A stretch of 64,000 bases of DNA, taken from contig NC_092351.1 in the NCBI RefSeq assembly GCF_963676685.1, forward strand, positions 25,358,001-25,422,000, read 5' to 3'. The stretch is from Mytilus edulis. Its lineage: Eukaryota. Positions 12,901 through 51,800 of the stretch are shown piece by piece. The first letter of the stretch is position 1; every line of letters starts with the position of its first letter. A model generated the notes under the pieces. It saw only the letters and a list, made by a program, of their open reading frames with translations, was not told the DNA's origin and did no database searches. Made by a program: the position numbers and the translations under genes.

Positions 12901-15900
12901 AATGAATAATTATTTATAAATCTTGAAATATATCTGCAAAAACACGCTTATCAAGTTAGCTTATTGTTGTATGAATGTTTATTACTGATAAGATCTGAAA
13001 ATGCATACAACAAATATATTTACTGACTCTTTCCATGATTCTCCTGCTAAATACACCAACAATGAAGTATAGTATTCGTAAGTTATTACTTCGGTACGGC
13101 GTACTACGGACATGTTTGAATAAAGGGCATACACCCACAAGCATGTTTAATCCCGCTGCATCATCTGCATGTGCCTGTCTTAAGTCATGTAATTCAGTTG
13201 TTATCGTTTGATGCTGTATATCATATTTGTTTTTCGTTCATTGACTTGTATCTATACTATTAAACGAGAAGACCTCATTTTGTGTGTCGCTTCTCTTCCT
13301 TCCACAATAAATTAATCATCATGCCTCTGTGACCTATAGGTACCATGTATTGTCGCATTTGTCATCCATTCTTATGATTATTCAGTTTATGTTATTTTGG
13401 GGAAAAAAACGAAAAAATCTGCGTCCGGATATTTTTCCGTCATTGGACGAAATTTTAAGTCAGACTAGACATCCGGTTTGCGTTTTTCTGTACTTTGTAC
13501 ATAACAAAGACTACGAATAACGTGTATTTGCTATCTGCTATCATTTTCAAGTTTACTATCCACGGCGGTCACTGAGTTTATTAAATAGAGAGAGTCTATA
13601 TATTGAAATCAATAGGGAAAAAATATAGGAGTTTTGGAGGAAAAAAAATAGGAGCCGGGCTAGAAAAACAATTGTCATGTCCCAATAACTTTTGATACCT
13701 TTTCTGAAATTCTTCAGTCATAAAATCTTTTACAAACATTCATCGGGTCACAAAGTATATTAAATATAGAGTGTCTATATAATATATCAATGACCGCCGT
13801 GGATTGATTATATATATAGTTAACTGAGAATTGATAGTAAAAAGCAAACACACTTTATTTATAGTAATGTATGTTTATAACATACTAAACGTATGTTTAT
13901 ATTGAAATAAATAGAAAACAAAAAATTGGAAATTTTGGGAAAAAAGGAGAAGGAGTTGAAAAACAATTGTCCCGCTGTCCCAAAGTACCTATAACTTTTA
14001 TTACGTGACCTTTCCTGGATATCTCCAGTCATTATTTTTTTTTATAGTAAAAAGCAAACACACTTTATTTATAGTAATGTATGTTTATAACATACTAAAC
14101 GTATGTTCATATTGGAATAAATAGAAAACAAAAAATTGGAAATTTTGGGAAAAAAGGAGAAGAGGTTGAAAAACAATTGTTCCGCTGTCCCCAAGTACCT
14201 ATAACTTTTATTACGTGACCTTTCCTGGAAATCTCCAGTCATTATTTTTTGATAGTAAAAAGCAAACACACTTTATTTATAGTAATGTATGTTTATAACA
14301 TACTAAACGTATGTTCATATTGAAATAAATAGAAAACAAAAAAATTGGAAAATTTTGGGACAAAAGGAGAAGGGGTTGAAAACAATTGTCACGCTGTCCC
14401 CAAGTACATGTACCTATAACTTTTATTCCATGACCTTTCCTGGAAATCTCCAGTCATTATTTTTTATACAAAAATTCAACACAACACTTTACATACTTTC
14501 AACCACGCTCTGGATGCCCGCGGTTGTGTTCTAGCATTTATCATCCTTGCTTAAAGTATTTCAGTTTGGGTCATTTTGGGAGGAAAACGAAAATATAGGT
14601 GTCCATATATTGTTTCCGTCATCGGACTGACTTTTGAGAAATATAATTTAAGACTTCCGCTGCCCTTTAGGCCTGTTTTGAAATAAAACATAATTTGCAT
14701 AAGTACTTGGGACAGAACAATTATTTTTTGCGTTTTTCTGTATACTATGATCATACATATACTATAGATAAAGTGTATTTGCTATTTATATATATTATCA
14801 ATTCCGATAGTTTTCTATCCTCGGCGGTCACTGAAATATTTCTGTATACTACATACATATATACTATGAATAAATTGTATAAATTTGCTATAATTTACTA
14901 TAAATTCCCCTGAATAGTTTACTGGGGTGACTTATAATATATCAGTGACCGTTTTATATAGTAATGTATGTTCATAGTATACAGAAAAACAGAAAGAATA
15001 AAAATCGGTATTTGAAAAAAAGGGGGAGGGCAAAAAAATGTGTCCAGTCCCCAAGTACCTTTGACAAAAACATCAGAAATGTACAGATTTTGTTATATTG
15101 ATGGTCTATCTAAAATTTCATAATTAAAACAATTGTCCTCAAAATTGTTATTGACTCCCTTACACATGAAGTCTATTGCTGTCTGATTTTTTAAAGAAAT
15201 TTAACTAGATAAACTTACGGAAATATAATTAGGAATACACTTTACATTCATAAACAAAAAAAATAAGTTTCTATAGGTATAAGAATGTATAGACTAAACT
15301 TTGTCAGATGAAAAGGTCCAATTTGGACGGCAAATTTCAGCTTTTTATTGCTCCGCTTGGCTATGAAAAATATAAAATAAACTATCGCACCAACCTTGCA
15401 CCAAAAAGATTTTTTATCCGAAGTTTGATATGTATGAACTTGTCAAAATGTTAAAATTTCTAATTGGTGCAAGCATGGTGCGGTGGTCAAAATTTAGAAA
15501 AACCATCAAATTTTCGGTATTTTTGCTTATTTTCCCAATTATGACGTCATTTGCACCTACCATTGTGACGTCATTGAACCTTTTTTAGTTAAATAAAAAC
15601 ATTTTTTTAAAATCATTTTCTCATATTCTAATAATTTATGGAGAAAAATCTGCTCTGTTAGAATTTTCATTATCTTGTAAATCTGGGGCCATTTTAGGCC
15701 ATTAAAGCCCCTACTCCTTTGATATATATTAAGTATAATGTATATCGACTATCATTATAATAAATATACTATGCTCTTGATTGTAATATATGTAATGCTA
15801 TTTCAACAGTATGGCTACACTTGGTGTAAAAAGCTGGCTGCAGAGCAGTTGAATGAACTTTCTGATGCTATGTCACAACCTGTAGCAGATCCTGGTGTGA

Positions 15901-20067: not shown

Positions 20068-20428
20068 ATAGAAAAAAACTTATCTTAATAAAGAAAAACC
20101 TCATCATAATAGAGAAAACCTCATCATAATAAAGAAAACCTCATCATGATAAAGAAAAACCTCATCCTAATAAAGAAAAACCTCATCCTGATAAAGAAAA
20201 ACCTCATCCTAATAAAGAAAAACCTCATCCTGATAAAGAAAAACCTCATCATGATAAAGAAAAACCTCATCCTAATAAAGAAAAACCTCATCATGATAAA
20301 GAAAAACCTCAGCATGATAAAGAAAAACCTCATCATGATAGAGAAAAACCTCATCATGATAAAGAAAAACCTCATCATGATAAAGAAAAACCTCATCATG
20401 ATAAAGAAAAACCTCATCCTGATAAAGA
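20068..20428. repeat. 21-bp minisatellite (ataaagaaaaacctcatcatg)n
   Basis: About 17 near-identical tandem units; source of the spurious heptad ORFs. Confidence 0.95.
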
Positions 20429-20807
20429 AGGAAGTACCATAAGGCAGTTACGGCGTTCCATAAAAGACCAGGACGATAATGGTTGTTTAGGCCAAAGCTT
20501 TTTTTCTTAACCACAGAACATCTGAAAATGGTTTAATGTTAGATCTGTCTTGTACATTCATTTAACTAGCAACGACTACAATTTTGATAATAAACTCAAT
20601 AAGTATGCTAATTTTACAGCTTTAATATATCTATACCTCAGATTCTGGTCAAACTGTTAAACAGAAAATTTATACATGTATATACATGGCAAAATCAACA
20701 TCATTGCTCCATAGCAACTAAATTTGCTCATAGCTAAGACTATTTATTATTTGTTAAAAAAATAGTATTGTAAAAAGTTTTTAAACTCCGAAAATAAATT
20801 TCTATAA

Positions 20808-21760: not shown

Positions 21761-22734
21761 ACAGCAACCAAGGGAAGACAATTCGTTCTAGCCAAAAGAC
21801 GAGAGGCCCAAAAACCATCTAAATTTGACAAATACGATTATGTAATCGTTCATTAGATGAACACAACATAAATATATTTATTCTTTTTACTGATTGTGTG
21901 TCTCGTGTTGGAATGATTTCTTAAAGTTTTCTCATGCAACTTGCTTGAGGTGTATACTCTTATAGTTACATGCATGACATTATAATTCTCGTATGTGAAC
22001 TACTTTACTTTCTCTCTTTCTCTCTACGAATATTTGACTATCCAAACCACTATCTGACCGAATTATGAAATAATTGACCTCGTCAATGTCTTCGTACATT
22101 ACTTCTACTTAAAAAGTTGATTGGTACCATACGGCTTAAAGCCTTTGACCAATGAGTAAAACACATACCGTACAGTCGGCAATAAAATGCCCCAACACGA
22201 AAAAATATTTTCAAACGAAACCACCAATAGCCTGATATATGTACACATAATAAAAAAATAATAAACGAAGAACATATTAATAACAGACATCAAGCACGAC
22301 AAAAACTCAATAACAGGCTCCTGACTTTGGGACAGACCCATACCTAATTTAGCCGAATTAAACATGTTTGTGAGCGGTAACATCCCCCTATCTTGCCCAC
22401 TAACATAGTTCATATGTAATCGTCATTAATATGCAACCTGATATTCAGTAGTAGTCGTTTGTTGATATGGTTCATAAGTGTTTCTCGTTTCTCGGTTTTA
22501 TATAGAGTAGACCGTTGGATTTCTCGTTTGAATAGTTTCTACACTAGTATTTTTTGGGGCCTTTAATTTTTAGCTGTTTGGTGTGAGCCAAGGATCCGTG
22601 TTGAAGACCGTATTTTGACCTTTAATGGTTTTTCTTTTACAAATTGTGACTTGGATGTAGAGTTGTCTCATTTTCACTCATACCACATCCGCTATGGATT
22701 TTTTTTCTGGACAAACTTTTTTTTTTCGCCTTCG

Positions 22735-25700
22735 CACGGTGGGTATGGTTGTCCTGCGAGAGAACGTACTGTGCTGGTGATTCGGTCCTGACGGGTGCTG
22801 GTGATCAATGAAAAAATGTAAACAAAGACGAAAATGATGATTTTTGACGTTTTCACTCATAAAAAATGGAAGAAAACAGTTGAGATTTTTCAATTTCGTT
22901 TCTTATGGGTTCATATAAAAAAAATTAAAAAATTGACCCTCTAAACTGTTTCAGTAAGCGTAACACAAAAATGCTCATTTTCAGAAAATCTCGAACTGAA
23001 AAAATAAAACAAAAATGCTCATAGAGTCCGCTTTCTATACCGCAATCCACACGACAAAACAATTTTGTGAAAAAACATTGCAATTTCTTAAAATTTAGCA
23101 TTTTCTCAATTTATTCATGTCCTGATACTGTGCTGGTGGGTCCTGTCATTGTGCTGGTGGGTCCTGATACGGTGCTGGTGATTTTGGATAAGAAGTTGGT
23201 CATATTTGAAACAAATGTTACAAAATCAATAAAATTGGGCAGATAATTGTTGCCAACAGGATCTATGACTCCTATTTTAGCTCTTGTGCATCCATTTGGC
23301 TGTTTAATATGTGTTTTCAAATGATCTTAACTTGTATTACATAATAACATAAAAGGGCAACATCTTTCGTCCAATATCAGATAACAATATATAGTATCTA
23401 AAATAAGTTAAAAATTCCACAATACTATATAATTCATTTTATGTGTCAATTTGTTCGAAAAAAGTCGAAAAGAAGAGAGTTTAAGTTAATGTCATGATTA
23501 TCTGTCGCTTTCTAGATCTATGCTTAGCATTTATTTCAGATGACATGGACTCCTCACCCTGATGACCCTGCTGCCTTTTATAACTTCATCCGTATACATA
23601 TATTAATAGATAAACGAAAGACTGCAACTGGTATTTTTGTATTTAAAATGATTCGTTGTAACGAGAATATTTGTGGTGAATGGAAACTGTGAGGGTCAAA
23701 ATCTTAAATTGCTTATAAATGTTGCTGGACCTAGTTTCGTTATCTGATCCGAATTTTCTGAAATGTGCAAGGTAGATAGACATTTTGATTTGTTTACTCG
23801 GTAATGAACCCTTGTGTTGATCCCATGCTAAACATAACAAAAATCTCTGTACAAAGGTCTGTGAATTTTCTACAAAAATAATGATTTTATTTTCACTAAA
23901 TTCTCTTTTTTCTACTAAATACAATAATGAACTATAATAAATAATAATGCTTTGCAAGAAGTTTCCCCTTGATATATGCACATTTCGTAATTGACATTGT
24001 CATAAACCGTACACGAAAAGATAAAATATTGATATAAGTACTTAATTTGCATCTTTGAACCCCCACCCCGGCTTGTTTTTTAGGAGCCTGGGGTGTCTAA
24101 AAATGGTCGATTACAGACAGCCGAGTACGCATTTTACTTTCCAGGCGTGTTTATGTTTTTTTAAATATAAATTAAGGCTACATTTTAATATAATGATTCT
24201 ATGAATTCACAATATAAAAAAAATGCAGAAAAAAAATGAATGAAGTGAAATATCTTAGTAAGGAGTCATAACTACAGAGATGGTGTGTTTGACACACAAA
24301 ACTTAAAAGCTTAGTGATATTAAGAATATTAAAATAAAAGTGTATTTTAGTTGGGTATTTTTTCCATTTACTCATTTTCAATTATAATCAAGGCACATTT
24401 GATTTTTATTCATGAAAAATATTTAAATATAGAAAAGTAGGACACATTGTTCACTTCCTCCCCCGTAATTCTTTATCAAAAATATTTATTTTGAAATGAA
24501 AAAGCTAAGAAATCTTAGGTTTTTTAGTGTTTTCTAGGTTATCTCGTCTTCATTCTCTGCCATATTTTGGCTTGCCCTTTCATAAAATAGTGATTTTTTT
24601 AGTGTTTTATCGAATTTTCGAAAAACAAATACCTGATAACCGCTTAGACAAAAAAAAATATGTTGGAAAAATCTTACAGCAAGTGATTCTTAATAGCTAT
24701 AGCCTCGGTCACACCTTACCGGATAGCTCGAACGGACGACTAACGGATAAAAAAAAGTTATCCGTTGACAAAATTTGTATCTGTTGGGAGTCCGTTGGTG
24801 TACTAACGAACATGTAACGAATGCCAAACGGACACACAACGGACACTGAACGTACGTGAAACGGGTACGTACCGGACAGAATGGACGTCGAACGTACATC
24901 CAACGGACGAGTACCGGATAAAACAGACACCTAATGGAAGCGTAACGGATAAAACGGATGAACAAAATAATCTGAAAATTAAAGGCAATAAACCATCTAA
25001 AAATTAAAGGCAATAAACCATGAGAAATTTCAATTGGCATTTGTCCATTTTACATCCGGTAGTCATCCGTTTTATCCGTTATCCTTCCGTTAATATCCGT
25101 TTTACATCCGTTTTATCCGTTAGGCGTCCGGTAGACATCCGTTGGTGAATTGGTCTACCGGATCTCCAACGGATGCATAACGGATACGTAACGGATACAA
25201 AACGGACGAGTACCGTACAAAACGGATGCCTAACGGACGTTCAACGGACATTTTATCCGTTGGACGTCCGTTCAAAGTTTGAACATGCTCAAAATTTTCC
25301 ACCGGACAGAACGGACGTCAACGGATAAAACGGAAGCTTAACGGACATGCAACGGATATGGACGGACGCCTAACGAATAAGAACGGACGTCCAACGGACA
25401 TGAACGGATTGAGAAAAAGTTATCCGTTAGGCGTCCGTTCGAGCTATCCGGTAAGGTGTGACCAAGGCTAATATAAGATACATTTTTCTTTTACAATCCA
25501 CCTTTAAAATTTTACGGGAAACTATTCCAAGCTTTCACTGTAACCTCGCTCTAACTTATCCCCCTCCCTTCCCCCACCCTCCCCCCCAAAAAAACACCAA
25601 ACAAACAAACCCGCAATACTATTGTCATTCGTATAGTCAACACTCAATTGTTCACAAACAAATGTGTTTTAAGCTGCTAAAGACATGATTCAAACGCTCA

Positions 25701-26469
25701 GAAAGTCCTTTGTTCTATATTTATGCAAAACCTTTCACATTTTTATTTTATGGGTTATTGTTGAAGGTCGTACGATGACGTATGGTTGTTAACACATACT
25801 TCCTTTGGTTTCTTATGGAAATTTGTCCATTGACAACAAACATACCACATCATCTACATTATATTAAGTATTGTATAAATTACAACGTATTTTGGTGATC
25901 TTGCAAAATGATCGTATTACTAATCCCGAAAATCGTAAACATATTTTCTTATCTTTAAAGGGGGCAAGAAGGGTTCCATTAACAGGCCAATAAATAAGAT
26001 TACAGTTAATTTCAATTTTTTTTTTAAATAGGGGTATTTTTTCTCTCATAATAACAGTAAACAGATTCACAACAATGTCAATTTCAAGAAAGCAGACAAC
26101 AGCTAATTAGTCAACAACAGTACAGCATCAATGCTCTTGAATATATGCCACTTTTAACTAAAATATAAAAGCACAGAACCAGGACATAGGAGAACAGAAC
26201 CAGGACCGTTTTTCTTATCACCAGCACAGCGTCAGGACAATTCCGTTTAACGAACTTGCACGACTTTTGCAATATAATATTGTTGTAATATACTTTGCAT
26301 GGTACTTATGACACATCAGAGAAAAATTAAGCAACAAAACAGTCGTTTTATTGCCGTTCTGATACAATGTAAACAAACCCACCAGCACAGAATCAGGACC
26401 CACCAGCACCCGTCAGGACCAAATCACCAGCACAGTACGTTCTCTCGCAGGACAACCATACCCACCGTG
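22735..26469. mobile_element. Non-autonomous Transib/RAG-like DNA transposon (CACGGTG termini, ~70-bp TIRs, 5-bp TSD CTTCG)
   Basis: 22735-22804 is the near-perfect reverse complement of 26400-26469; cttcg at 22730-22734 and 26470-26474; subterminal gtgctggtg repeats at both ends. Confidence 0.75.
24701..25469. mobile_element. MITE with ~50-bp TIRs and internal aacgga repeats (possibly PIF/Harbinger), nested in the Transib-like element
   Basis: agcctcggtcacaccttaccggatagctcgaacggacg ... cgtccgttcgagctatccggtaaggtgtgaccaaggct. Confidence 0.85.
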
Positions 26470-27657
26470 CTTCGGCGAGAGACAATTATCTATTTATTTG
26501 GCGACAAGTCGAAAACAATTTTTTTCTTTCAATTTCAGCATTACATATAGTGGCAGCTGAGGGTGAAACAAACATTTTTTTTCGCAGGGTCAAAAACAAA
26601 TTATTTTTTTCTCCAAAAACTGGAAACAAACTTTTTTTTCCAAAAAAATCCATATCCACCCCCCCCCCCCCCCCCTCCACAGAAAATCAAATGGTTGCCG
26701 CCTTATGTCACAAACTTATTAATTCATCTTGTGTTTATCGTTTACTTTTTTGCAACAAGCGTCTTCCCAACCAACACACAGTTCTCCCATACAATGCCCC
26801 TATAGGTAAGTGAGGACCAAGTGGAAAGGAATGTATTAATCGATGCGTTAAAGTCAGTATAATTCAGTCTTATAAGCAATGACTTCTTGATGATATAATT
26901 TTTTGAAATTTTTGGCTAACAATACATTATCTTGCACCATTGAAAATATGTCAACTAACAATGCATTTCTAATTTTACTATTTCTAAATTTTATGAAAAT
27001 AGTTTTGTTTACCATCGGATGATGTCCGGTTGCCAAGTATAGATAATATTTATTCAACACTAGACTGGTGATATTTTTGTTCTTTTGCAATTTTTTGATG
27101 TTTTTATGCTATAATTTCATTTTAAATGCTTTAAATGCAACTCAACTAATTTTATCGAAACTAATAACCGATTAAAATATTACTAAATTCTACTTTCGCT
27201 TTAATCCGGAAATGAAGAATTGATTATTGGCCTTTCCGAATTGAGGTATCAAACAGGGTGGAAAGTTGCAGTTTTCCTGGTGAAATAGTAGTTGCAAAAA
27301 TTACACACTAGCACACAAAGAATTCTAGAAATATTCTAAATAAAAAAGGCTCGACGTTTCATCACACAATGTAAAATAGAATACAAACATAGCTAAGCAC
27401 TTGGTACATCATGATACTTTATAGCTCTGCAGGAATAACTTATTATACATGTTATAATTTCGATTTTAATTATTGAAAATTGATGGAAGGGAGGAAATAA
27501 TGTATTACGCGCTATATTTCAAATTTTACAATAAGTTATCACCAGAGACTCATGAAGGTGTCTTTCGATTCGGAAAATTATACTGAACCGAAACTTCGAC
27601 ATGTTTTTCTTATAGCAGCACATAGATGTTCAGCCAAAAGAACATACTAGTTTAGCC

Positions 27658-39800: not shown

Positions 39801-42800
39801 CCTTCCCCGAATATCAAATGGTCGTTCCCTTATTCATATAAACCTCAATTCAGTGTGAAACGAGAAATAAAATTGAGAATGGAAATGGGGAATGTGTCAA
39901 AGAGACAACCCCCCGCCCAAATAAAAAACAACAGCAGAGGGTCAATGTCTTCTTATGAGGAAAACAGATAACATGTACGTCAGGCGGGCGGACAGAAGGC
40001 TACCACAGGTGTCTGTTCATTTAGATGAAAACACATTGAAGGTTTTTTTTTCAAACCTTCAAAGTGTTTTCATGTAAATGAACGGATATGTAGTATCCTG
40101 TGACAAAATGAAGGTCAAGTTCAATTTTCATGATGTTATCTTTTCTCGTTGTTCAGTTATAGCCCTTTCCAAAGAATGCATTTTTTTGATGAATTAATCC
40201 ATTTCTGTACAAACGAAAATAACTCGTTCTTTAAAAGATCTTAAAAAGACATTGTATAAATCATAATTGACTTTTTGGAGACCGTGTTTATTCAATATTG
40301 GGTTAGTAGGGTTCCATATTAATTTAGGTTAGTAGGCGGGGCTTATTTCAATACACGGTTAATTAGTAGTGTTGTTATGTCCCTTAGGCTTTATACAATC
40401 GACACGGTTTTGAGTAAAAATCTTTTAGGTTTCAACAGACGATGAAACTGATAATTATAATTTCCAACGATTCGATAGTATAGTGGGAAATTACTGTAAT
40501 AACGGTACTAGTGAATACTATTGATACGGGTACTTCTTATGCACACGGTATATGTATATCACGTGATACTGATATTTAGCGGGAATGTTTTCCCTTGTTG
40601 GTCACTTCTAGCCAAGCATCAGACTGGACAACAGTGAAATATGACGGACCCCGGTTTAGATAATTCCGTAATGCAAGTTATTGTCCAAGAAGTACAAAAT
40701 GAAGTATCTGCTTCACAACAAGATACCCTTAACCAAATCACCGCTTTGATAGATAACAGGCTATCCACATTCCAGGGAAACATCCAGCAGTCTCAGCGAG
40801 ATATCAGTCAATCCCAGATGTCCAAGATATTGAGGAGACTTTATCGGAGAACTATACTTTCCAACGGAAGGGGAACGAAAATCAGTATAAGCACGAGGTT
40901 AAAGTCCTGACGAAGTTAACGGAAGCAAAAGCACAGTTAGACGGACCAGATTTATCCGTAGAATCCATTCATCAAGCTAGAGACAAGATTGTTGAAGGTA
41001 TGACAATTTTAAGAGACAGACAGAAACTCATTAAACTCACTGATTCATCCGAATTGGGTTGGAGAGTGGGGAAGGAGTACACAACTTATCCAATTGCCGA
41101 CGACTCCGAAGATGAAAAGAAGATGATAAGGGCGCAAAATAGAGCTGAACGTAGGAGCAAGTCAGATAAGATAAAAAAAAAAAGTCAACGAAGACGGTCA
41201 GGAAATTGCCCTATTCCACAAAAGAGAGAGATCCAACCCCTACTTGGAGAACAGGGATATGTTTTAATCGTGGAAACAAGCGCCATTGGGCGAATGATTG
41301 TCCTGAAAAGAAAGATAAGATAAGTATATTTAAAAATTTTGAATGTACTAATTTGTATTATAATATGAAAGAATGTTATATTGATCAAGCTGAAAATTCA
41401 TTCAGTGCAAATGTAAACAAACCAGAAGATAAACATACGACAGAAATTACTCAATCGAAACCAAGTGTCATTAGTGATAACTTTTAAATAGAAGTCGATA
41501 TACCTGTCATATATTTGAAAAATAACAGATCATCTTTAAACAATGCAGAATTTGTTGTTGAAGAGATTCACAAACTTCTTAAAAAAAAGGTGCATTTCTG
41601 AGGTTTATTCGAAACCAACTGTAGTAAATCCACTTACAGTAGCATTTAATAAAAATAAACCAATAGTAGTACTAGATTGTAGGCATTTGAATCCACATCT
41701 GTTTGAATTTAGGTACAAGTACGAGGATACCAAGATAGCAAGAGATCTCTTTCAAAAAGGATATTATTTATTTAGTTTCGATATTAGATCTGCTTATCAT
41801 CATTTGGAAATCTCAGATATACACAGAACTTTCTTAGGTTTTGTTTGGAATTTTGAAGGTAATACGAGATATTTTGTTTTCAATGTTCTTCCTTTCGGTA
41901 TATCAACTGTAGGGTACATATTTACAAAAGTACTTAGAGAAGTAGTTAAGCATTTACAATCAGAAGGCAAAAGGATAATAATGTTTCTAGACGATGGGTT
42001 GGGTGGAGATAGCAATTTTGAAAAATGCATAGAAAGCAGTCAAATAGTTAAATATAAAGTAGAAAATTTGGGATTTTTGTTCGCACATGAGAAGTGTTTT
42101 TGGTTACCAAGCCAGAGATTAAAATGGCTAGGGTATACTTGGGATACAAATATAGGTAAAATATTTGTTAATGGAGATAGAATTATGAGAACTGAAAAAA
42201 GATTAGATTTTTAATAGAAGAAACAAACGAAGGGGTAGACATTTTTTTATCTAGATTTTTATCTAGAATTGCAGGTCAGTTGATATCTATGCAGATACTC
42301 ATTGGTGACTAAGTTAGATTGAACACTAGATACCTTTATGATTGTATCATGGGTAGAGCAAGTTGGGATGCACCAGTCAGGATTTGCAAAAAAGCAATTA
42401 ATGAAATACATTTTTGGTCTATTTCATTGCAAAAGCTCAATGATGCTGGAGTCGACATTTGTAATGTCGATCAGCTCAGCTTAATATTGATAATATAGAA
42501 ATGTTTTGTGACGCCTCAGATGTAGGCTTTGGTGGTTATTTAACCTCAGATTTGAATGCAAAACTTTTTTGCAAGGAAATGTCCGGTAACTTTACAGAAC
42601 GAGAAAGGAACGAAAGTTCCACTTGGCGCGAATTAGAATGCGTCAATAGGTTTGTACAAACTTTTGATAATACATTTACTGACAAAACCGTCAAAAATTA
42701 TACAGACAATCAAAACGTACCTCACATATTGAGAGTAGGAAGTAAGAAACAGAAATTACAAGATATAGCTATTGACATTAAATAAACTTGTGTTGATAGC

Positions 42801-45800
42801 GATATAAACATAATTACACAATGGGTTCCGAGAGAGAACAACACACACGCAGACAAGCTCAGTAGACACACTGATCATGATGATTGGGCTATTCATTCTG
42901 AAATATTTGATGAAATCAATAGCTTATGGGGTCCATATACAATAGACAGATTCGCAACACACTATAATACACAGTGTTAACGATTTAACTCTAAAATATA
43001 GTATCCCGGTACGGAAGCAGTTGACGCATTTAGTCAAAACTGGAACACAGAAACAAATTAGTTAGTTCCACCACCATCACTCATTTCCATGGTCGTACGC
43101 AAAGTAGAAAACGACAAAGCTAACAGCACGCTTGTTATACCGGAATAGAAATCAGCTCCATTCTGGCCGTTGCTATTTGCATCTAACAATCTCACCAAAT
43201 TTATTAAAGGTACAAAGTTTTTACCAAAAGAATACTCAGTCGTTTAAGGTAGTGGTAAAAATGGCGAAATTGGTGAACATATTCTGAGATTTCATATATT
43301 AGCAATCAAACTAGAATTTTAATGTAATCAATATTGTTTGCAGGTTTAAGATTGGAACAAAACGTCCAGGCTGCCATAGACAACAGTTGTATATCCCCGG
43401 AAAACAAACTTAGGAGTTTAGCCAACAAGATGTCCAGCTTTATTGTGGGATCCAAAGCCGAAAATACCAGTAAAAAGTACTTTTATGGTTTCAAACGATG
43501 GAAAACTTTTATTAATGAACACAAAAAGTCAGAATTACTTGCTAACCCAGTTCATGTCGCACTTCATTTGACATATCTTTTTGAAAAAAACATAGTTCTC
43601 CCAGTGTAATAGACTCCGCTGTATATTCTATCAAATGGGCCCATGAGCTTACTGGCTTCAATGATCCTACTAACAATTTGTATGTTAAATCACTGACTGA
43701 ATCTGCAAAACGTTTGAACGGTAGACCAGTAGTAAAAAAGGATCCAATTAACAATACTATTCTTATTGATTTATGTTCATTGTACGAAAGTTCAGAAGAT
43801 TTATTGATAGTTCATGATTTGACCATGATTTGATAGGTTATTCAGGGTTTTTGCGTTACGATGAGCTTAGCTCTTTAAAATGTAAAGATATCACAGTTTT
43901 CGATGTTTATTTAGAGATACATATTTCACGTAGTAAAACTGATCAATACCGACAGGGTTATAAAATTTTGATTTAAAAGGTAGCACTTTAGGTTGTCCAT
44001 TCAATATGTACAATACATATATTCAGCTAGCTAGTCTAGATGAGAAATCTGAATTATTTGTTTTTAGACCTATATTTAGATCTAAGGGTATAGCAACATT
44101 GATACATCAGAATAAAAAGATGAGTTACACATCAGCTAAAGAAAATATTGTAAAAAAAATTAGAATTGTCGCCCCTAATCTTAATCTATGTTTACATTCT
44201 CTTCGTGCAGGCAGTGCTACCGCTGCTGCCCAGTCTGATGTGAACGAAAGGTTCATTAAGAGACACGGGAGGTGGAAGTTCGACACAAGTAAGGACGGGT
44301 ACATAGATGATACATTTGAAAAGAGAATGTCAGTTTCACAAACACTTGAGTTGTAAACTGAACTTTACCCGTCCTTTCTTTGTGGTTCTAGTATTGCTGG
44401 GCTATGGGCTATATAAAGAGTATTTTAGTATTTATTTATATGCCTAGAAATAGTATTTAGTAAAGTTGATACTTATAATTTCCTACGGTTCGATAGTATA
44501 GTGGGAAATTACTGTAATAACGGTACTAGTGCATTCTATTGATACTGGTACTTCTTATGTACACGTATATACATATCACGTGATACTGATATTTAGCAGG
44601 AATGTTTTCCCTTGTTGGTCACTTCTAGCCAAGCATCAGACTGGACAATTTTCAATTGAATTGTTATTCTAATTTGTATTTAGTAGGGATTAGATATTTT
44701 ACTAAACAGTTACTTGATTTATTACTTATTCCATATAGTATATTTAATTCAGTTATATACAGTCCAAGTGTAACTCTCGAGACCGTCTTCCGAGCATTTG
44801 GGTTTGGACACAGGTTTCCCACATTTTCCACTTTATTTAAAATGTAGTCTTTTGACTGCAGTTTGAATGGAGTTTGAACCGAGGTTACTCGTTTTTGTTG
44901 GTTTTTCCTGGCGGGAGGGATCGTTGGTGACAGAGCCCATATTTTTGAACACAATTTACTAGTTTTTCTATTGAATTCTTTAATGAAAGTTTTATTTATA
45001 GTGCATTGATACTTATGCTTCATGTATATTGTGTATATCTATTATATTTATATTAATAAAATATTGGGTCCACCAGTATTGCTGGGCTTTCGGCTATATA
45101 AAGAGTATTTTAGTATTTATTAATATGCCTAGAAATAGTATTTAGTAAAGTTGATACTCGGAGAGTTACAATGGAGATCAATGAATAACAATATTATTAT
45201 ATCCGGAATAAAACAGGAGCCAAATGAGGATACAGAGAACAACACTGATAGAGATTTTAGACTAAAAAAACTTGGAATCGGTGAAAATATCAATTTCGTT
45301 TCTGTTCATCGTTTTTTTAGAAAGCAAAGACAAAATATAAAAAAAATAATGACTAAGTTTGTATCTTTGAAAGATAAACAGTTAGTTATGAGGAACTATC
45401 ACAAATTAAAGGGGACAAATATTTCTGTCAGGAGCACAATTTCCTGTAAAAAATGAAAAGAAGAAGGAAAAACCTATATTCTGTGTCAAAGCAGGCAAAG
45501 AAAGGCCGAAAGAAAACATTATTGGTAAGAGATACACTTTTCATAGAAGGGGAATTATACGAACACAATGGTGACAGAGAACCAAAACATGCAGATTACA
45601 AAGAAACACCAAAATCTTGAAGCATATAGTTTATCTGATAAAAGTCCATTCATTACCAAACCCAGTGATTTTAACTCATTGAATCGTCCGATACCAAAAC
45701 AATGGAAAATGCTGAAGCAGAACAGAATTAATTCTGACGAACCTGATTCGTAAAGCCTGACCAATATAAAATTAATGTTAACTCTATTATTATTTATCTT

Positions 45801-48800: not shown

Positions 48801-51800
48801 CAAAAGTAATTTAAAGAAAAGGATTGCATGACTCCAAAATGGAACGACACCTGTTGCGTCGATATGATAAGCGTGTTCTGTCATGCATACATCACTTACC
48901 ACGCAAATCCAAACTCAGTCAAAATGTTACAATTGGGAAAAGGAAACACACGGTATTAATACAAATCACAAGACTTTTTTGGTGTCTACACATCTAAAAC
49001 CGCCAAAAATGTTGGTATTAAGTTGAGACACAGTCACATCGTTTCAACCAATTTGTGCTGTCGACCGTAACACCCACGTAGTGTCAATTTCAGTGGTTTT
49101 TCCTCTCAACTCTATTTCGAGTAATTTTCGGTTAGAAGCCTACTCCTGTAAGTGAAGTCCTTATAGTGTGTAAACATGAACGGACATAACATATTTATTG
49201 TGATATGCAAACGCCCTACAATTGTGGAAAGGTAATGTTACTGTTGATAAGATGGGAGATGACAGTTTAAGTTTTAATGTAGAGAATTTTTACCGTTTCA
49301 CTGGCTTCTCTTTAGACTGGTTTACGCCTGTTTAGCACTCATTTTGATAGGACCTAAAAATTGATAGTATTCAGTTTGTCAAAACTTAAGTATTAAAACA
49401 GAAGATCGCTCATGTCGAAAGTCTTCATTTCTCTTATATAATTACATAACAGGCTTAATTTTCCTTTGTTTTTACGACGGCTTAATAATTTTTAGTAGAA
49501 GAATTATGCCTATGTTCATAATCACTGGTGTCCGAATAACTATATATCCTGATTAATACAAAAATATCCACATACATCGCAAGTCAATATATTAAGTGAT
49601 GTAAAAATGTATAAACATTGTGTTTTATAAAGATCCGTTTTATCTTCAATCTATATATTTTTGTGTGTATTCCAAAACGCGGGTTGAAAGGGCAACACTA
49701 TGGCGTATTTGGTGTAGAATTTGGAGTGTTGGCTTTCGATATTGTCCTACAACTTATTCCTAGAGACTCAACGGGAATATATGTAAACAAATCATCGTAA
49801 TTTTGAACTTTAAAACCCCGGCATTTTGTTATTCCACCAAATCATCAAAGTTAGTTAAATTGTAACCATTCAAAAGGGAAATCGCTCGAATTTACATTCA
49901 TGTGAACATTTCTAGTTCTAACTCAAACCTTTTCTGTGGAATGACTTAATCATATCCTCAAATTTGGTTATTCTTAATTATCAGATGCAGTAATTCATTT
50001 GCGTGATAATTGAGAACACTCATCTTATATAAACGATGCATCTTTTGTAGGAGATATACAAGTTTTGTTGCAGTACCGCCACTGACCAGACCTTAAACAT
50101 CGCAATGAACATTTTAAAACCCTATGCAATTGATACAGTGAGTATTGCGTCTAATATTGCAATGTAGTATCCTTAATAAAAAAATTGTAAGGGTTCCGCG
50201 GAACCCAGTGTCTCGCCTACTTTTGCTGTAAATTGCAGGATCAACAAAAATGAGGGAAAAATCAATAAAAATATTCTGCTTGATACCATGTTTGGATTGT
50301 AGGAAGCTTCTGTCCAAGTTTGGTAAAAAATCCTGGATAGTTTATGAATCTAATAAATGTTTTAAAAACTTTAACTGCAGACTGGATGTAATGTTAACTG
50401 GAAGAAAAACAAAGTCCATTATAAGTAAAATACAGATACACAGGTACAAAATATTAACAAAATTTCCTTCTAGATACTAGCTTTTGATCATAAACAAGCT
50501 TCTGTCTTAGTTTGGTACAAATAAAAAATAGTATAAGAAAGGTCAAGAAAGTTATAAAAAATTTAAAAAATTTAACCACAGAGTGAATGTGTTGTTTCCT
50601 GGCAGAAAAAAAGTCCATTTAAAGTAAAATATGGAAAAAATGGATTTGTCATTTTACAAAATTTACTTCTGGATACTATCTTATGATCACAAACAAGCTT
50701 CTGTCCAATTTGGGTACAAACCAAGGATAGTTTAAGAAAGTTATTAAAATTTTAAAAACTACAACCACAGAGGGATGTAATGTTTTCCCGCAGAAAAACT
50801 AAGTGCATTTATAAGTAAAATACGGAAAAATTGGAATTTTATTTTCACAACATTTACTTCTGGATACTATCTTATGATCATAAATAAGCTTCTGTCCAAG
50901 TTTAGTAGAAATCCAGGATAGTTTAAGAAAGTTATATAAATTTTAAAAACTTTAACCACAGAGTGTATGTAATGTTTTCCCGCAGAAAAACTAAGTCCAT
51001 TTATAAGTAAAATACGGAAAAAATGGAATTTTATTTTCACAAAATTTACTTCTGGATACTATCTTATGATCATAAACAAGCTTATGTCCAAGTTTGGTAG
51101 AAATCCAGTATGGTTTAAGAAAGTTATTAAAATTTCAAAAACTTTAACCACAGAGTGAATATTTGTGGACGCCGCCGACGACGACGACGACGGAATGTAG
51201 GATCGCTTAGTCTCGCTTTTTCGACTAAAGTCGAAGGCTCGAAAAAAATGAAACACATATACAAGATTTTCAATTTCTTTTAATTCGTTTCTACCCTTTG
51301 CATATATTCACAAATGAGGTAAACGAATCTTGTATAGAAGAACTTCGTATACTTACAGATAGTAAATGCCATTTTTGTTTAAAAAGAAATTATGATCACA
51401 CATTTTGCTTGAAAATGCAATCTTTTAATTTTATTGATTCAAGTTCCGCAGTCAGAATACCCCCCTCCCCCCCCCCCCTTTGCTAAACCCGGCCCTCCAA
51501 CAAAAACAAACTGATTTGAGTAATGATAGATTTAGTACCAATACAGTGAACCTTGTTCAATTGTTTAGATTTATCTTAATGTGAACAGAGACTTTTATTT
51601 AATGAAAATGAAATTAGATTATTAGAATGAATGAACAATTAAGATATAAAATATGTTCTTTTTTTCTTTACCTTAAATGACAATATAGAACTTTATGCCA
51701 TGGAATATTTGTAGAATTTTTTTTTCTCGCAAATAGCCAAAAGATTTAAACAAAAACTTCTTTTTGCGTTTATGTCTAATGTATGATGACAAATAATTAC

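Follow-up and report, generated by a model that had tools for sequence, protein, structure and literature searches.

The 64,000-nucleotide stretch of Mytilus edulis DNA analysed here (contig NC_092351.1, positions 25,358,001 to 25,422,000 of the forward strand; hereafter, the window) contains, at positions 22735–26469, a transposable element of 3735 bp whose first bases are CACGGTG and whose last bases are CACCGTG. As an earlier reading of the letters alone (hereafter, the sequence-only reading) had proposed, the element is bounded by long terminal inverted repeats (TIRs) and flanked on either side by CTTCG, the target-site duplication (TSD). The TIRs, then put at about 70 bp, measure 69 bp and are identical at 68 of the 69 positions, with a single mismatch. 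The element belongs to a family that multiplied recently and carries no enzyme of its own, and the question considered below is which type of transposase is likely to have moved it.

All nine copies of the motif GTGCTGGTG in the window lie inside the element and are oriented inwards from either end—five at the left (22771, 22795, 23130, 23151, and 23172) and four, inverted, at the right (26219, 26380, 26401, and 26425)—with none elsewhere. The 21-bp spacing formerly assigned to these repeats holds for the subterminal array, whereas the motifs within the TIR are 24 bp apart. A nonamer sought at 11–13 and at 22–24 bases from the terminal heptamer was not found, the best match being 3/9, with no AA at the six spacings, so that the earlier remark on the lack of a nonamer at 12/23 spacing still stands. 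No Rfam match was obtained.

The insertion split an older host repeat, copies of which are numerous. The joint 22725–26488, present in all four DNA runs (4/4), represents uninterrupted copies of that repeat, and the flanks of the element are themselves repeats; other copies of the split repeat were observed in loci L027, L230, L231, L271, and L273. Because the target was a small TCGCC-TTC-GGCGA hairpin within the older repeat, the inverted match seemingly runs on beyond the TIR, and for the same reason—the target being a small palindrome—a reading with termini GCAC..GTGC and a 3-bp TTC TSD fits this locus equally well. The features are collected in Table 1.

Table 1. Features of the element and of its insertion site, in window coordinates (MITE, miniature inverted-repeat transposable element).
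Feature	Position	Strand	Basis or remarks
High-copy host repeat of older date, interrupted by the element at the TCGCC-TTC-GGCGA hairpin	22690..26705 (22690-22734 + 26475-26705)	+	DNA-run joints
5-bp TSD CTTCG, left	22730..22734	+	Read from sequence; 5 bp is the family mode (72/98 sites)
Left TIR, 69 bp, starting CACGGTGG, with two GTGCTGGTG motifs (22771, 22795)	22735..22803	+	
Conserved left subterminal region	22804..23184	+	90-93% identity in old subfamilies vs 82-84% in the interior
Three 21-bp tandem repeats GTCCTG-N4/5-GTGCTGGTG	23119..23180	+	Putative transposase-binding role
Interior without coding sequence, derived by deletion from a ~5-kb master	23185..26060	.	~1.1 kb lost near 23407, 0.74 kb near 23804
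Nested ~770-bp MITE; inverted ends of 51 bp that start TAGCCTCGGTCACAC; numerous AACGGA/TCCGTT repeats	24700..25470	.	Sister copies, empty sites
Right subterminal region with additional GTGCTGGTG motifs (26219, 26380)	26219..26400	-	
Right TIR, 69 bp	26401..26469	-	
5-bp TSD CTTCG, right	26470..26474	+	Read from sequence

The interior, which the sequence-only reading had called decayed, is non-coding filler and not a decayed transposase gene. None of 20 full copies contained a stop-free frame of at least 120 aa—the absence of an intact transposase having been recognized correctly—and none of the 82 open reading frames (ORFs; at least 33 aa) of one 5-kb copy reached the Pfam cut-off. The RNA reads over the element, for their part, gave low cover on both strands with no listed splice joints, thus pointing to no transposase transcript.

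The nested MITE is common to the window copy and to L058, L059, L062, L068, and L208; its empty site is present in other family copies as well as in the DNA runs (joint 24698–25474), in which runs the MITE itself occurs at high copy. Its TSD in the window is irregular—either TA or an imperfect 3-mer—and its ends resemble those of PIF/Harbinger MITEs. Copies L058, L059, L062, and L068 carry both the deletions and the MITE of the window copy at 98.7–99.2% identity, but at different target sites with different TSDs, while L208 is a sixth copy of that structure. A deleted, MITE-interrupted, non-coding copy has recently multiplied. The occurrence of sister copies some 99% identical at other sites therefore upholds the proposal of a recent mobilization in trans, and since the multiplied copy is non-coding, the enzyme would have had to be supplied from elsewhere.

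The first 20 bases of the TIR had 396 forward and 396 reverse exact matches in the 1.37-Gb genome, while the reversed control had none; these 792 matches are therefore not attributable to chance and correspond to some 400 young copies, which at about 4 kb each would cover, roughly, 1.5 Mb. A sister variant of the TIR, searched as the pattern CACGGTGGGTAVG, gave 98 matches versus 17 in its control. The 65 two-ended copies that were measured span 2.4–9.2 kb; the ~5-kb master is the predominant form, the shorter copies are internal deletions, and the longer ones contain nested or duplicated segments. The left 660 bp had a mean identity of 96.6% across the family. In five old copies the TIRs were 91–99% identical, the subterminal regions 86–93%, and the alignable interior 82–84%, and in L234 (5.5 kb) the ends alone were retained; this better conservation of the ends than of the interior fits a long-term selection on cis-acting ends.

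Certain derivatives deserve separate mention. The interiors of L173 and L183 are tandemly duplicated (master positions 865–2876 or 1114–2991 repeated), while L237:100-1640 (G000:C2:62137546-62139085) is a fully palindromic 1.5-kb derivative with two left ends head to head, whose flanks are inverted rather than direct and which might be a product of hairpin or fold-back repair. In addition, several element ends at different places share a common flank (gtctacat or ggtgttta), as in L244, L272, L281, and L285, and in L023, L088, and L093/L309, which coincidence suggests that those copies were carried within other amplified repeats or duplications.

The TSDs were tabulated, as the sequence-only reading had advised together with the genome-wide TIR count, in loci L031–L068 and L170–L289 with at most five mismatches at both ends, six short-locus pairs, and the window, which sample amounted to 99 rows and 98 distinct sites (L290–L309 being left out); a site that fitted 5 bp plus another length was scored as 5. 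The TSD was 5 bp long at 72 of the 98 sites (32/38 in the first sample, 23/33 in the second), 6 bp at nine, and 4 bp at five; 12 sites had none, and no site was classed as 3 bp. Both termini were CAC in 84 of the 93 copies with both ends read. The claim that GC-rich TSDs characterize these elements did not survive: the 72 five-base TSDs contained 25.6% GC (92 of 360 bases), a proportion that makes the CTTCG of the window atypical. The targets, moreover, leaned weakly towards the palindrome ACY-ANNNT-RGT, p-values of 1e-4 to 2e-7 being reached at four positions over 144 half-sites. The family thus has the marks of cut-and-paste transposition—TIRs and a TSD at many independent sites—and, lacking a transposase ORF, has multiplied nonetheless.

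For the search of the partner transposase, 75 metagenome loci were pulled with a Transib motif, and 19 long ORFs from them were aligned into a profile, which scored HzTransib at an E of 2e-192 and both RAG1 and BbeRAG1L at about 1e-12, and detected four of five held-out metagenome loci, broken ones included. One metagenome contig (L105), which served as a reference, contains a complete insect-type Transib of 4184 bp; its TIRs are CACAGTGGGACAG, its TSD is CACCG, and its frame extends over 585 aa. Searches of protein collections with the Transib profiles gave close Transib matches (the named ones from arthropods, and one from a rotifer), with no seed from a mollusc or of the RAG1L type among them, and the viral and prokaryote collections gave no match. 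In the mussel genome, the two RAG1L motif patterns produced 4 matches (6 in the control) and 1 (1 in the control), none in a RAG1-like frame, so that RAG1L was not found by motif patterns; RAG2L was not searched for. The genome searches with PF12940 and PF06918 (DUF1280) were empty, which negatives are weak because the respective controls were silent.

Unpaired ends, the best left-end matches, an older subfamily, and the majority of the 98 matches to the sister variant also served as starting points for outward walks of 10 kb, the exact TIR ends being represented by the 100 among the matches listed out of 792. No partner enzyme turned up in the stretches around ends covered in this way, some 180 in number, which contained nested retroelements, repeats, and the remnant of a Polinton-like element; 53 of the long ORFs from these walks, when scanned with Pfam, corresponded to reverse transcriptase or integrase of nested retroelements, to repeats, or to host genes. 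Some individual candidates were discarded: the 1296-aa ORF of L208 (9.2 kb) belongs to a nested retroelement (weak DUF1759), L230/L231 (9.5 kb) and L234 contain no transposase-like ORF, and a weak CxC3/KDZ match in L263 (E 0.001) lies inside a decayed Polinton-like insertion. That insertion (L263:690-5800), in which integrase-, packaging-ATPase-, and capsid-like pieces are discernible by eye, directly follows a left end of the family and is in turn followed by a ~390-bp satellite. Taken as a whole, these negatives argue against the presence in the assembly of a canonical insect-type Transib or a bivalve RAG1L, but they do not bear on an enzyme that is distant or rich in introns.

The safe label is therefore a general one: the element is a non-autonomous CAC-ended TIR transposon, probably of the CMCT clade, which clade comprises EnSpm/CACTA, Mirage, Chapaev, Transib, and Plavaka, together with ESTA and Lanisha, with CA..TG ends and TSDs of 2–5 bp (PMC12730594). 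Within that clade a Transib-like nature is our best guess, which assignment would follow from the ends alone. Transib is recognized by its CAC ends and 5-bp TSDs, together with an A-rich tract resembling a nonamer and targets rich in GC (PMC1131882); of these, the family exhibits the CAC end with a CACAATG-like heptamer and the 5-bp TSD, but neither the A-rich nonamer nor the GC-rich targets. The Transib elements fetched for comparison (L105 and L139) start CACAGTGGG, eight of whose nine bases are those of the present family. We accordingly favor, with a probability of about 0.55, a family of non-autonomous TIR transposons with some 400 young copies, likely moved in trans by a distant transposase of the Transib type, with a RAG1-like core. 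Such a transposase would bind the TIR and the GTGCTGGTG repeats and, by analogy with RAG and HzTransib, might cut at the CAC tip leaving a hairpin on the flank; the ends would then be joined to the target with a stagger of 5 nt, sometimes 4 or 6, with a preference for AT-rich targets having the weak palindrome described above. More tentatively—and with doubts that outweigh our inclination—the driver might be an unrecognized RAG1-fold lineage, neither an insect-type Transib nor a RAGL, in which symmetric 69-bp TIRs and subterminal repeats would take the place of the nonamer, the targets would be AT-rich palindromes, and the stagger would vary loosely from 4 to 6 nt.

Several observations weigh against the Transib-type attribution. 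Among the resolved TSDs, 14 of 86 (16%) were of 4 or 6 bp, while Transib is described as duplicating precisely 5 bp (PMC1131882); the GC content of the five-base TSDs lies below the genome level of 32% (p=0.005), which is also approximately that of the window; and the AA at TIR positions 34–35/35–36, a Transib trait, is not present. The Transib profile, moreover, returned nothing at E<=1 from 234 loci of the mussel's own genome (1.81 Mb around copies), none of eight candidates (0/8) matched when one insect-type Transib protein from the metagenome was compared with the genome, in which comparison distant lineages could be missed, and the KWG.DG motif pattern of Transib gave 13 genomic matches versus 11 in the control, none of them a transposase. 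Finally, in molluscs Transib accounts for only 1 of 14,275 DDE ORFs (PMC10294476).

The family's long and symmetric TIRs, accompanied by short repeats in subterminal position, resemble the anatomy of CACTA-type elements, and the AT-rich targets, the 4–6-bp spread of the TSDs, and the missing nonamer are all unlike Transib, so that the same family might have been moved by another CMCT-clade enzyme—a relative of Chapaev or EnSpm, or an unnamed RAG1-fold lineage—with a stagger centered on 5 bp. Chapaev, nevertheless, leaves TSDs of 3–4 bp, and at only 5 of the 98 sites did we find 4 bp and at none 3 bp, which bears out the earlier judgment that Chapaev does not fit; nor do these counts suit EnSpm, with its TSDs of 2–3 bp (3 bp in PMC12730594). 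Although CA..TG ends with TSDs of 2–5 bp occur clade-wide (PMC12730594), CMC elements were present in all the molluscs analysed in PMC10294476, and Transib searches would miss such an enzyme, DUF1280 had no match in the search whose control was silent, and we regard this explanation as unlikely, if deserving of attention. The proposal that the ends are GCAC..GTGC with a 3-bp TTC TSD, in the manner of EnSpm or Chapaev3, has its equal fit at the window locus in its favor; yet the base preceding CAC at 76 ends was T in 39, A in 19, C in 9, and G in 9, exact 5-bp repeats occur at 72 of the 98 sites, and G flanks both ends at merely six of the 98, so that this reading, raised earlier as an alternative, is wrong and retains a negligible probability.

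Subterminal repeats are also typical of hAT elements, and hAT5 termini are not known to be CAC. The possibility of an enzyme from outside the CMCT clade that leaves TSDs of 5 bp, hAT5 for instance, is favored by the existence of hAT5 families whose TSDs are 5 bp long (PMC12730594), by the preference of hAT for AT-rich sites (PMC1131882), and by the abundance of hAT in bivalves (PMC10294476), but the conserved CAC..GTG tip, with its 8/9 identity to Transib tips, points to CMCT and renders that possibility improbable. Still more improbable, in our view, is that the family derives, as a non-autonomous form, from a RAGL/ProtoRAG transposon with RAG1L and RAG2L. The CAC tip and the 5-bp TSD are common to RAGL, pairs of RAGL genes are recorded from two mussels, Modiolus and Bathymodiolus, and RAGL of the non-autonomous kind from the pearl oyster (PMC7204232), and RAG itself occasionally makes 3–4-bp TSDs (PMC1131882); nevertheless, the TIR, which reads CACGGTGGGTATGG, differs from the protostome RAGL consensus CACTWMCAAACKTYKBB, the AAA at positions 8–10 being missing, RAGL copies are few and have short, often asymmetric TIRs versus the symmetric 69 bp here, the RAG1L patterns stayed at control level, PF12940 was empty with a silent control, and Mytilus, though in the species table of PMC7204232, is unnamed in its main text. 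The suggestion of an active RAG-family transposase hence found no backing—no RAG1L or Transib gene in searches of limited sensitivity, no nonamer, and no match to the RAGL consensus—and nothing connects the element with the RAG branch of immune recombinases. The element behaves like a non-autonomous Transib but does not qualify for classification as one, and to fix its lineage within the CMCT clade would take the enzyme.

Elsewhere in the window, ORF fragments at 40757–42211 and 43964–44353 look, by eye, like a decayed DIRS-type retroelement. There are, in addition, tandem arrays at 20073–20429 (17 units of 21 bp, with KEKPHHD repeats in one frame), at 13831–14465 (three units of 210 bp), and at 50304–51157 (4.4 units of ~192 bp).

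The element thus represents an ordinary non-autonomous DNA transposon family, whose value as a pointer is modest and which has as yet no bearing on the origin of RAG or of V(D)J recombination. Since a family with Transib-like ends spread recently, however, its enzyme exists or existed lately, and both the TIR bait and the target rules for that partner are now defined in a phylum in which Transib ORFs are almost unrecorded (PMC10294476). Were the driver to be an unrecognized RAG1-fold lineage, a living marine branch would be added to the Transib/RAG tree.

We found no prior description of the family among the papers listed in our searches, though it may already be catalogued in Repbase or Dfam, nor did Mytilus or CACGGTG have a match in the supplement of PMC9435367, according to which source Transib subgroup II includes symmetric TIRs. 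With the CMCT clade as a whole the family shares the CA..TG termini and a TSD mode within 2–5 bp, but differs in the 6-bp TSDs at 9 of the 98 sites. It resembles hAT5 in the 5-bp TSD and the AT-rich targets (PMC12730594), but has CAC..GTG ends and no associated hAT transposase. From the protostome RAGL/ProtoRAG elements of Martin et al. (2020; PMC7204232), with which it has in common the CAC start, the 5-bp TSD, and the bivalve hosts, it departs in not matching CACTWMCAAAC, in having copies devoid of RAG1L and RAG2L, and in its far higher copy number. As to TransibN1_AG and TransibN2_AG (Kapitonov and Jurka, 2005; PMC1131882), the family differs from them in lacking the A-rich nonamer at 12/23 spacing, in its AT-rich targets, in its 16% of 4- or 6-bp TSDs, in its length of 2.4–5 kb, and in its symmetric 69-bp TIRs with GTGCTGGTG arrays, but is like them in the CAC tip, in the heptamer of the CAC(A/G)GTG type, in the 5-bp mode of the TSD, and in the abundance of non-coding copies beside few, if any, autonomous ones.

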